Below, piece after piece: positions 16,292 through 45,368 of a stretch of 64,000 bases of DNA. The position numbers were made by a program, and so were the translations under genes. The notes below the pieces were generated by a model. It did not search any database. It was given only the letters and a program-made list of their open reading frames with translations, and was not told where the DNA came from. How positions within the stretch are numbered: the stretch's first letter is position 1; every line of letters starts with the position of its first letter. The stretch is from positions 2,108,001 to 2,172,000 of the forward strand of contig JAYWIR010000019.1 of assembly GCA_036172245.1 (NCBI GenBank), read 5' to 3'. The DNA is from Raillietiella orientalis (lineage: Eukaryota).

Positions 16292-19200
16292 ATGACTGAC
16301 ATGATTGCGAACAACATGGATGGGTACATGGAGCAGGAAGAAGAATGGGAACGAGAAGATCTACTTGATCCCGCTTGGGAGAAGCAGCAAAAAAAGGTCG
16401 ATTCTTCGTTCTTCTCCTCCCGTGCGAGTGATGCGAGCCTGTTTGAAAGTTTTGTGGCGTGCTTGGCTCAACGGCGCGGGGGAGAGACGAGTGGAACACG
16501 TCGGGAGTAGGGACGCCCGGAACACGGGCATGTCGGGATTGCCTGTTGTTTGGTGACCCCGCTTCGCGCCGCCGGCGTTTTACACATTTGAATGGAATTT
16601 TCAAAGTCGAGAAGAGTTGTGCACGAACCGGGAAGCGTGGTGTTTCCTTAGGATGCTGAGCGTACGAATCGAATCTTGCAGAGAGAGGTTATTATCTCTG
16701 CAAGAATGCAGTTTTCGGTGTGCAGGTATGGGTGCACGTATGCATGAACTCTCGTGTGGATGTAATTGCTCCCGATTTGGGGTGGGAGGGTGGGGGCTTC
16801 GGAATGAAATGGTTATGCACGTCCGTTTGAAACGTTAATTCATGGTTATAGAATTATAACCGCGTGTTTTCTGGAGATCCATAAATAATGAGAGAGGTGC
16901 TCCGTTGGTAGCAGCGTAAATTCCTTCGTTAAGCGTATTCAGGTAATCCATATGTTGGAAACCATGGGAAGAATGAACGAAGCACTTGTATAGGAATAAA
17001 GAACGCATGGGATTGTGGATACATCTTGTTGAAAATACCTCTTCAAAATTGCTTATGGCCGTGTGAGAGGTTATCGTAGATTACACTTATGTGGGAAACG
17101 CTTTAGTTGCATTCGGCGATCGGTAATTTGTTTTCACGGTAGTTTTTTTTTTTTTTTGTTTGTTTTTGCAGTCTTACGTACCGAAGTTCTCTAAAGTTGC
17201 TGATTTTCCGTTGTGATGAAGATTCGTTCATGCGTACGGTAGAAAGATTCGTGACACTTGGTCACCCTGTAATAAAATAAAAGCAAACATTCCATTTCGA
17301 ATTTAACTTTGGTTGTGGGCTGCTTGCAACAAATTGATAGCTTCTTTTGTGTTTGTTTTTGTTTTTTTTTTTAGTTTTTTTCTTGTTTTCCCGAACAATC
17401 AGAATGCCAAGAATCAGTAACCGTTTCTAAAACCGATGATTTAGAAACATTCAGCTTTTAGTTCTTCAGTTTGAATGCTTCAAAAAAACATTTCACTTTT
17501 CGTTTCGTAAAATGTGATGGTTTCCATACCTTCTTTTTTTGCGTACAAAAGTGTAAAAATTCGAGCTATATCATTTGTAGATTGAATATCATGCTAATAA
17601 TAGACCTGTTCAATAGAGTTTATAAATATACTGACGTAAAAAACCTTCCCTTTCCCCCCCTTGATTTTATACAAATTAAAATGTTTACTCCAGTTTAACA
17701 GGAAGATCCATCTCGAAATTCCAAATAAAACTGTAAGTTTGCCATGGATGCGTTACTTTACGTGTGATATAAAAGTATCAGATCCAAATACAGTGCTGAA
17801 TATTTTGCAATGGAATCAGTGATGCCACTGACTGGGAGCTGTTAATTGGCTTCCAAGTTCGAAAAGCTCCATGGATGTAACTGTGGCTGTGGTACTTTGA
17901 AAATTTCAAGAACGAACATTTGGTACCAACCAATGAGTACTAGAAAATGGGGAAAGTAGTCGTATAAAGAAATGCTGGAACGTGCCTTTGAGATTTCGAG
18001 GAATTCTTGTATGATCCTGTAAGCGTTAGATGATTATCCAAACAAACATAAGCATACATTATTTACAGGAAAATTTGTACTCATAAAAGAATGTATATTC
18101 GATAGATAGTTCCAGTTGTCATAGTCTTTCATTCTTACAAACAATTATTTGAAACTGAAGAAAGAATGCTTTTAATGCTGCATGAAAATATGAAAATATT
18201 CAGCAAACATTAAATGTCCGTTTACTTTGTGCAAATTTTTTGCTTTTGCAACACGCATTTTTATGCCAAGTAGCTTTAAAGTAAAGGTAGTACCACCTAC
18301 CCACTTATTCATGCTTCCCGAGAGCTGATAATTTCGAGCAGTTTATCTGTGTTGAATATTTATTACTTAATTACGTTCTGCCGTAGTTAGCTTAATTGTT
18401 TTCGTGAGAATTCCTCAGAGTCATTAAGGGAAGTTGATTGATTCGAAATTTTTCTGCCAAATCTGATTAATTGGAATAATGCATCTTGCAAGTAAAGTTA
18501 ACCAAAGATTATAATGTTGACATGCATACTCAGAGCTGCTAATGGAGGATTTGGTATTTGTATTTCAGTGTCTGTGTTTTGTGGTAGAAAATGGCGTTTG
18601 CGTATAACACAAGTTCCCGAATTATTATCAAATATAAAAACAGTTTCTCTGTAAACTTCTTGATTCTCGGCCTTGCATTGCTTTTTCTCATGCAAGGGAC
18701 GCTAATCGTAAACAGCTGTACATTAGGAAAATTTGTTTCTTACTGTGCAAAGGAATTTCTTCATGGTTTTCTTTTTAAATCGTCGTTTGATATATTTCAT
18801 TCTCGGTAAACAGAATCCTTTCGTGTTCCAAAGTATCCAAAGATCGGGAACTTTGCTACTCTAAGGCAAAACTATTTGGAAGTTCACAGTTAATAATAGT
18901 TGGCCCTCGATAAGCTGGACTTTCAAATAACACTTGTCCATTCCCTATTTTATTTTTTTTTATTTTTTTTACATGTGTACGTTTCGTTTAATAATAGTGA
19001 ATATTTCTCATAAGCGTAGCAGTCCTTGGTTCCATTCCTTTTAACGTTCAAAATGATTTGTTTGTTTCCTCGGGTAATTTTATGTTTTGTGTGTACACGA
19101 CTTTCAAGGAACAAAGCTTCTGAGCTTAATTTAGTGAGATGGAGTCAGCTAATTCCACTTGGCCAGTGTTCGTGTTCTCGTGCGATTCCCAACAGATCGA

Positions 19201-45000: not shown

Positions 45001-45368
45001 ACACCCCTGTTGTTCAGACAAGTGTTGGTAATTCAAACGAGAGGCGAAATAGAGCTGGCGAGCTTCGAGACGTTCCACAGAAAGTGAAGGTAACCACATG
45101 GGTTCATTGATTTGTGAGAGTTTATGGTAAGCAGATCGTGGATCCATCGCAGATATATGATATAGCTAACATATTGTGGGATGAGGATTCTCGGAAAAAC
45201 TCTCGAAGAAATCAGTTGGAGAAGGGCATGGTGGGCCGTGTCATTCAGAGGTGGACATCTCTGCAACAGCAAGAATTTGGAGAACAAGATATTTTATTGG
45301 TGCAGATCGGGGACCGTATAGTTAAAATTGCCGAAAGAGGTGTTCTTGAACTCGGTTCGGAAGTTTAA
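33030..45368 (+). CDS. pcx: Pecanex-like multipass membrane protein; ~14 exons, ~1759 aa
   Basis: N-terminal [138 protein letters not shown]. Exons: 33030-33182, 33571-33755, 35577-35731, 38234-38455, 39129-39239, 39514-39612, 40638-43430, 43512-43705, 43760-43990, 44043-44288, 44337-44672, 44725-44894, 44939-45089, 45135-45368; sum 5280 nt. Exons 3-6 rest on splice signals and phase only. Confidence 0.95.
35344..35662 (+). repeat. 75-bp direct duplication (35344-35418 / 35588-35662) of part of pecanex exon 3
   Basis: 70/75 identical. Confidence 0.95.

Follow-up and report, generated by a model that had tools for sequence, protein, structure and literature searches.

There are few signs that the order of genes matters to an animal, and pairs of unrelated genes with deep conservation are one of them; hundreds of conserved microsyntenic pairs have been catalogued. 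The closest described systems are the conserved ancestral microsyntenic pairs (CAMPs) of Irimia et al. (2012, Genome Res 22:2356, PMC3514665). CAMPs are unrelated genes that lie next to each other across phyla; such pairs are enriched for 5′-5′ orientation and for very short spacers of <1 kb, which the authors attribute to shared or bidirectional promoters. A pair with these properties is found in a 64,000-nucleotide stretch of Raillietiella orientalis DNA (assembly GCA_036172245.1, contig JAYWIR010000019.1, positions 2,108,001 to 2,172,000 of the forward strand), referred to hereafter as the window, where a mixed-lineage kinase (MLK) type MAP3K gene stands head-to-head with a pecanex gene. 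We suggest, with a probability of roughly 0.6, that this pair goes back at least to the ancestor that protostomes and deuterostomes had in common and has been kept together by a short shared promoter, and that the alpha-actinin gene abutting it in the window is a lineage-specific neighbour.

Alpha-actinin (+ strand), the MLK gene (- strand) and pecanex (+ strand) are intact and immediate neighbours in the window (Table 1). Agreeing with the original prediction, which had been made from the letters of the window, their identities, strands and outer ends are right, with position 16292 being the actinin ATG and position 45368 the end of the pecanex stop codon. The ATGs of MLK and pecanex are 797 bp apart and point away from each other, so that the claim that these two are head-to-head neighbours was borne out; the actinin TGA and the MLK stop codon are separated by 379 bp, tail-to-tail.

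An alignment of the N-terminal pecanex exon, used to scan metagenome contigs, returned 54 loci in 35 clusters (≥88% nucleotide identity of that exon), and the upstream flanks were searched with the window MLK exons and 120 named MLK proteins. An upstream gene was recognisable in 11 of the 35 clusters, and 7 of the 11, represented by one locus each, have an SH3-kinase exon of MLK there, encoded on the other strand; the 40 remaining loci had 0-3.9 kb of flank with no recognisable upstream gene. Orientation was divergent (5′-5′) in all seven MLK-bearing loci, as in the window, with short spacers of ~0.8-2.6 kb (Table 1). For four of the seven, PDB searches showed the MLK type: the MLK exons of L045, L052 and L034 scored 182-233 bits with MAP3K9 and 72-88 with TAK1, DLK and ZAK, while the SH3 domain of L044 scored 72 bits with that of MLK3 and 46 with the next family.

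The contigs come from distant lineages, as judged from trees of both proteins (built in quick mode, with Shimodaira-Hasegawa-like approximate likelihood ratio test [SH-aLRT] values, given in brackets below, as the only support) and from sequence identity. The MLK of L045 groups with a gar MLK4-like protein (98) inside the vertebrate clade (99), and in this fish-like contig the divergent orientation is seen directly. Those of L021, L030 and L052 fall with Capitella, an annelid (87); the named proteins closest to them are from nemerteans (77-78% identity) and Capitella (75%), and the pecanex of L052 clusters with that of another annelid, Owenia (82), within the spiralians (98). The L034 MLK stands among the pancrustacean/insect rows of the tree (82 with Apis, on a long branch), and the first pecanex exon of this contig is closest to that of the collembolan Orchesella (78%). 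L033 and L044, which represent one further animal lineage, are about equally far from all relatives, at 50-57% identity for SH3 and 64-70% for pecanex exon 1. Further to that, the spider Oedothorax gibbosus carries pecanex (JTE90_009077) and MLK (JTE90_009078) under consecutive locus tags and on equal-sized contigs.

Two of the vertebrate pairs have support in the literature. A 3.89-Mb deletion at human 14q24 covers, in this order, ACTN1, 17 genes of which MED6 and TTC9 are the last two, and then MAP3K9, PCNX1 and SIPA1L1 (PMC10751923); an interval of chicken chromosome 5 contains PCNX1, MAP3K9 and TTC9 (PMC10976558); and KCNK1, MAP3K21 and PCNX2 occur together at 1q42 (PMC11892930). MAP3K11 and PCNX3 appear with similar statistics in one gout co-localisation table, in which positions are not stated (PMC11145851). 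At these loci (MAP3K9-PCNX1 in human and chicken, MAP3K21-PCNX2 and MAP3K11-PCNX3 in human) the two gene families are those of the window pair. The original prediction had made neighbours of all three human pairs: the sources uphold the adjacency of MAP3K9 and PCNX1 and the placing of MAP3K21 and PCNX2 at 1q42, and for MAP3K11 and PCNX3 they go no further than naming both among gout candidates.

Adjacency is therefore found in vertebrate, annelid-like and hexapod-like contigs, in a spider, in the window and in the human and chicken gene lists. Since the same head-to-head pair recurs in seven independent metagenome clusters, the adjacency goes far beyond chance, and this recurrence across lineages shows that the arrangement is at least as old as the last ancestor shared by protostomes and deuterostomes. 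Chimeras do occur among metagenome contigs, but nothing specific points to an artefact here, and chance or convergent juxtaposition, or faulty assembly, is hardly credible as an explanation given that the same orientation and short spacers are seen in seven clusters from different records, as well as in the window and the spider, and that by simple reasoning a specific upstream neighbour would be expected by chance for about 1 in 10,000 genes.

The MLK subfamily of MAP3Ks comprises MAP3K9/10/11/21, with slipper as the Drosophila member. In the window gene, the first exon encodes an SH3 domain (Pfam SH3_1, residues 36-85) followed by a kinase domain (PK_Tyr_Ser-Thr) from residue 113, which is the MLK-type order. 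Against PDB, this kinase scored 190 bits with MAP3K9 and 170 with MLK4, compared to 81 with TAK1, 78-79 with DLK and 76-78 with ZAK; it is on these scores that the assignment to MLK rather than to DLK or ZAK is upheld, as the MLK tree contained no DLK or ZAK sequence. Among the best 120 of 1393 relatives in a large protein collection (E ≤ 1e-10; best identities 53-62%), those with names are MAP3K9/10/11/21 or MLK4-like and the others are unnamed or 'hypothetical'. Past the kinase, where an MLK would have its leucine-zipper/CRIB region, the alignment with millipede and damselfly MLKs goes on at 37-42% identity. In the MLK tree the window protein falls within the pancrustacean set (99), beside Artemia (93), on a long branch.

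Membership of the pecanex family is evident from a Pecanex_C match of 273 bits and from the conserved N-terminal exon (MGSQ..LRQG.WAS.TGGW..DP), of whose 51 aligned positions 18 are invariant in 15 sequences. The collection held 348 pecanex homologues in the length class searched, the best identities to the window protein being 49-57%. The pecanex tree follows animal phylogeny in its shape, its vertebrate members are named PCNX1 or PCNX3 (PCNX4 is outside the length class searched and so outside the tree), and the window protein is placed among the arthropods (clade support 99), its branch being very long (1.11). No protein in the collection was near-identical to the window pecanex or MLK, and the window sequences read as those of a fast-evolving arthropod. 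One mayfly model (Ephemera P0001) matches the window pecanex with 1401 bits, but at an identity of just 49-53%, too low for the mayfly origin that the score might suggest; we suspect that it holds an internal duplication which inflates the bits, as do the public MLK models P0121 and P0122, in both of which one stretch of the locus aligns at two separate query ranges. Such internal duplications of the matched region explain why the bit scores of P0121 and P0122 are far above their identity.

The third gene is a true alpha-actinin, with successive + strand exons matching Pfam CH, Spectrin, EF-hand and EFhand_Ca_insen, and with alpha-actinin-2/3/1/4 as the best PDB matches (139-155 bits, with plectin reaching 66 and spectrin 63). 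As it adjoins MLK in the window at 379 bp, and as the 3.89-Mb human interval with MAP3K9 and PCNX1 also includes ACTN1 (PMC10751923), all three genes could be taken for an ancestral block under shared regulation linking JNK signalling, Notch-related endoplasmic reticulum (ER) function and the actin cytoskeleton, as the original prediction proposed. We consider this very unlikely. Actinin was seen in none of the 54 pecanex loci, although L034 alone reaches the 3′ region of MLK; beyond that region, the ~0.7 kb of sequence remaining in L034 has no match to actinin or to any other Pfam family. In human, 17 genes (the OMIM genes as listed for the 14q24 deletion) part ACTN1 from MAP3K9, and it is TTC9, not actinin, that flanks MAP3K9 there and in chicken (PMC10751923, PMC10976558). 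ACTN1 is thus 'nearby' in the sense of the shared interval and is not an immediate neighbour; the functional coupling of JNK, Notch and actin likewise found no support in this analysis. It follows from the 54 loci and the 17 human genes that actinin is a matter of looser linkage and stands outside the shared block, so that of the trio proposed to predate the protostome-deuterostome split only the MLK-pecanex pair can be followed that far. That actinin is linked to this region at all may be an old feature. The abutting arrangement is seen in the window only, and would represent a lineage-specific tightening of an older and looser linkage on the same chromosome.

We turn to the reason for the persistence of the pair. 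The core of the window (~20-44 kb) is AT-rich and CpG-depleted, with a GC content of 0.30-0.39 and a CpG observed/expected ratio (o/e) of 0.28-0.41 in most 2-kb windows, and is flanked on both sides by sequence with a GC content of 0.42-0.63 and a CpG o/e of ~0.75-1.05. All recognisable coding sequence is located in this core or at its 5′ edge. CpG-normal islands are present at the 5′ end of actinin (15.4-18 kb) and in the MLK-pecanex spacer, and CpG-depleted gene bodies with such islands suggest germline gene-body methylation. CpG o/e in the spacer is 0.93 overall and 0.84-1.06 in 200-bp windows between 32201 and 33000, and next to it, in MLK exon 1 (31601-32200), it is 0.00-0.33 in three 200-bp windows. 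A single CpG-undepleted island spans the spacer and the edges of both first exons, and looks like one unmethylated promoter region serving both genes, in keeping with the short 5′-5′ spacers described for conserved pairs by Irimia et al. (PMC3514665).

The pair most likely persists because transcription of MLK and pecanex would begin within a single short promoter region common to the two, which in the window would correspond to this single 0.8-kb CpG-undepleted island. Because both promoters would share the short spacer, nearly any breakpoint between the genes would presumably harm one or both of them. Such a pair could still be lost, and it has gone in several pancrustacean lineages. Unlike that of classical bidirectional-promoter pairs, the shared promoter of MLK-pecanex is a candidate read from the sequence, and we know of no pathway that the two products share. 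The likeness to those classical pairs, such as HSP60/HSP10 (cited in Irimia et al., PMC3514665), is that in the window the starts are <1 kb apart within one CpG-undepleted island. A stricter form of the same idea, in which MLK and pecanex have been driven by one bidirectional promoter since before the protostome-deuterostome split and have been kept together for a fixed ratio of their products, appears improbable to us; were it true, signalling from MLK to JNK would have a functional connection, so far unrecognised, with pecanex, a membrane protein of the ER.

Several observations weigh against a shared promoter as a general constraint. Of the 11 informative clusters, 4 have a different gene upstream of pecanex: NAMPT in L002, a KDEL receptor in the L039/L040/L042 cluster and again in the L041 cluster, and Gcd10p in the L017/L020 cluster. 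Trees or identities mark these contigs as crustacean-like (L002, L039-L042) or insect-like (the L017 cluster). Locus tags are non-consecutive in 4 of the 5 species in which both genes are visible, namely the beetles Abscondita and Gonioctena and the hymenopterans Trichomalopsis and Cardiocondyla, which suggests a broken pair in these four insects too. The two proteins are on different-sized contigs in 13 of 27 species and on equal-sized ones in 14, this being a weak proxy for linkage because the longest contig of a cluster may belong to another of its members. With the pair broken in several lineages, any constraint on it is not absolute. No conserved non-coding sequence emerged from a k-mer comparison of the spacers of five lineages, in which no 9-10-mer was common to at least four of the five and 8 shared 8-mers were observed compared to 6.0±2.7 in shuffled controls. 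Lastly, in two of the three human pairs the starts are tens of kb apart, a distance that does not fit a strict shared promoter. We conclude that the pair is ancestral and that it has disappeared more than once, above all in Pancrustacea. The gene for the KDEL (ER lumen protein retaining) receptor is on the pecanex strand in all four contigs that carry it (L039:3973-4419, L040:5456-5902, L042:5468-5914 and L041:280-767).

The same losses bear on a competing account, in which an ancestral pair has been retained passively, with no selection for co-regulation, by few viable breakpoints in a spacer of <1-3 kb together with slow rearrangement. We hold this to be rather unlikely, though it is the most serious of the alternatives. 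Losses fall in lineages that look fast-evolving or rearranged (L002, L039-L042 and the L017 cluster, and, by their tags, the two beetles and two hymenopterans), no spacer motif is conserved, and human MAP3K10 is not known to have a pecanex partner, all of which would be expected of passive retention. Less easily reconciled with it are the window, which is long-branched and fast-evolving and has nevertheless kept the pair with a 797-bp spacer, and the three vertebrate paralogue pairs, which we take to have kept their arrangement after genome duplication. Adjacency or proximity is backed by the literature for two of these three (PMC10751923, PMC10976558, PMC11892930), MAP3K11 and PCNX3 being named together. 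It is hard to tell whether a shared promoter has been under selection or safe breakpoints have simply been lacking, and we favour the former by roughly two to one.

MLK-pecanex as a conserved synteny was not found in the titles, abstracts and passages of the literature searched (published pair lists were outside the search), nor is the pair named in the main text of Irimia et al. (PMC3514665). It is a conserved microsyntenic pair of a known type, and may already have been catalogued. Divergent and with a spacer of <3 kb in a fish, in an annelid-like worm and in arthropods alike, it offers a clean and compact case in which to weigh the candidate causes, shared promoter and lack of safe breakpoints, and pecanex, a poorly understood protein, gains a testable regulatory partner. 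The claim is a modest one, as nothing yet shows the MLK and pecanex proteins working together.

Table 1. Genes, exons and spacers of the window, and position of MLK relative to the pecanex start in seven metagenome contigs
Feature	Position	Strand	Basis or remark
Alpha-actinin gene	16292-25022	+	ORF translations, Pfam, PDB matches
Actinin exon 1	ATG at 16292	+	followed by a 4.7-kb first intron
Actinin CH-domain exons	from 21244	+	Pfam CH
Actinin alternative exon copies	22047-22259, 22310-22585	+	
Actinin spectrin-repeat exons	22589-24354	+	Pfam Spectrin
Actinin EF-hand exons	24490-24840	+	Pfam EF-hand
Actinin last exon	24864-25022	+	TGA at 25020-25022
Actinin-MLK tail-to-tail spacer	25023-25401	.	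379 bp, sequence read
MLK-type MAP3K gene (orthologue group MAP3K9/10/11/21)	25402-32232	-	Pfam, PDB, tblastn
MLK stop	25404-25402	-	
MLK putative zipper and C-terminal region	~27502-25405	-	tblastn exon map
MLK further kinase exons	~31297-31064, ~27692-27516	-	tblastn exon map
MLK exon 1	32232-31492	-	SH3 and kinase N-lobe; ATG 32232-32230
MLK-pecanex 5′ spacer	32233-33029	.	797 bp, CpG-undepleted, candidate bidirectional promoter
Pecanex gene	33030-45368	+	Pfam Pecanex_C, N-terminal alignment, tree
Pecanex exon 1	33030-33182	+	MGSQ...GGWF.DP motif
Pecanex small exons	between ~33.5 and 39.7 kb	+	tblastn exon map
Pecanex giant exon	~40649-43441	+	tblastn exon map
Pecanex Pecanex_C exons	44040-44895	+	Pfam 273 and 60 bits
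Pecanex last exon	45111-45368	+	stop ends at 45368
MLK in L021	~0.8 kb upstream of pecanex start	opposite	
MLK in L030	~0.8 kb upstream of pecanex start	opposite	
MLK in L052	~0.8 kb upstream of pecanex start	opposite	
MLK in L044	~1.3 kb upstream of pecanex start	opposite	
MLK in L033	~1.5 kb upstream of pecanex start	opposite	
MLK in L045	~2.1 kb upstream of pecanex start	opposite	
MLK in L034	~2.6 kb upstream of pecanex start	opposite	

The exon map of the window MLK was obtained by tblastn with proteins P0143 and P0133. Intron content varies between the annelid-like relatives among the metagenome contigs: the first MLK intron of L052 is filled with remnants of Mariner/Tc1-type transposases (2519-2974, 4451-4696 and 7230-8312), which puts MLK exon 2 out of reach, and in the related L021 the MLK introns are roughly 200-300 bp long.

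Actinin, MLK and pecanex are the sole recognisable genes in the 64 kb, as none of 107 open reading frames (ORFs) of ~100 amino acids or more in the flanks (1-16000 and 45500-64000) has a Pfam match. Two long ORFs at 59663-60619 and 61997-63184 have translations rich in R, A, G and S, and look like GC-rich non-coding sequence. No Pfam family reached its curated cut-off in the spacer and intron ORFs tried, those of the 32233-33029 spacer included, and an Rfam scan of spacers and introns gave no matches; three faint matches below the cut-off (SieB, Serpulina_VSP) in spacer or intron ORFs look like chance.

With their stop codons only 379 bp apart, actinin and MLK must have 3′ untranslated regions that are very short or overlapping. 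On the + strand, AATAAA signals are present within this spacer near 25218 and 25240. Inside actinin, the two adjacent exons at 22047-22259 and 22310-22585 encode one segment twice and have a 13-residue stretch in common, a layout which, read from the exons themselves, would be that of mutually exclusive alternative exons.

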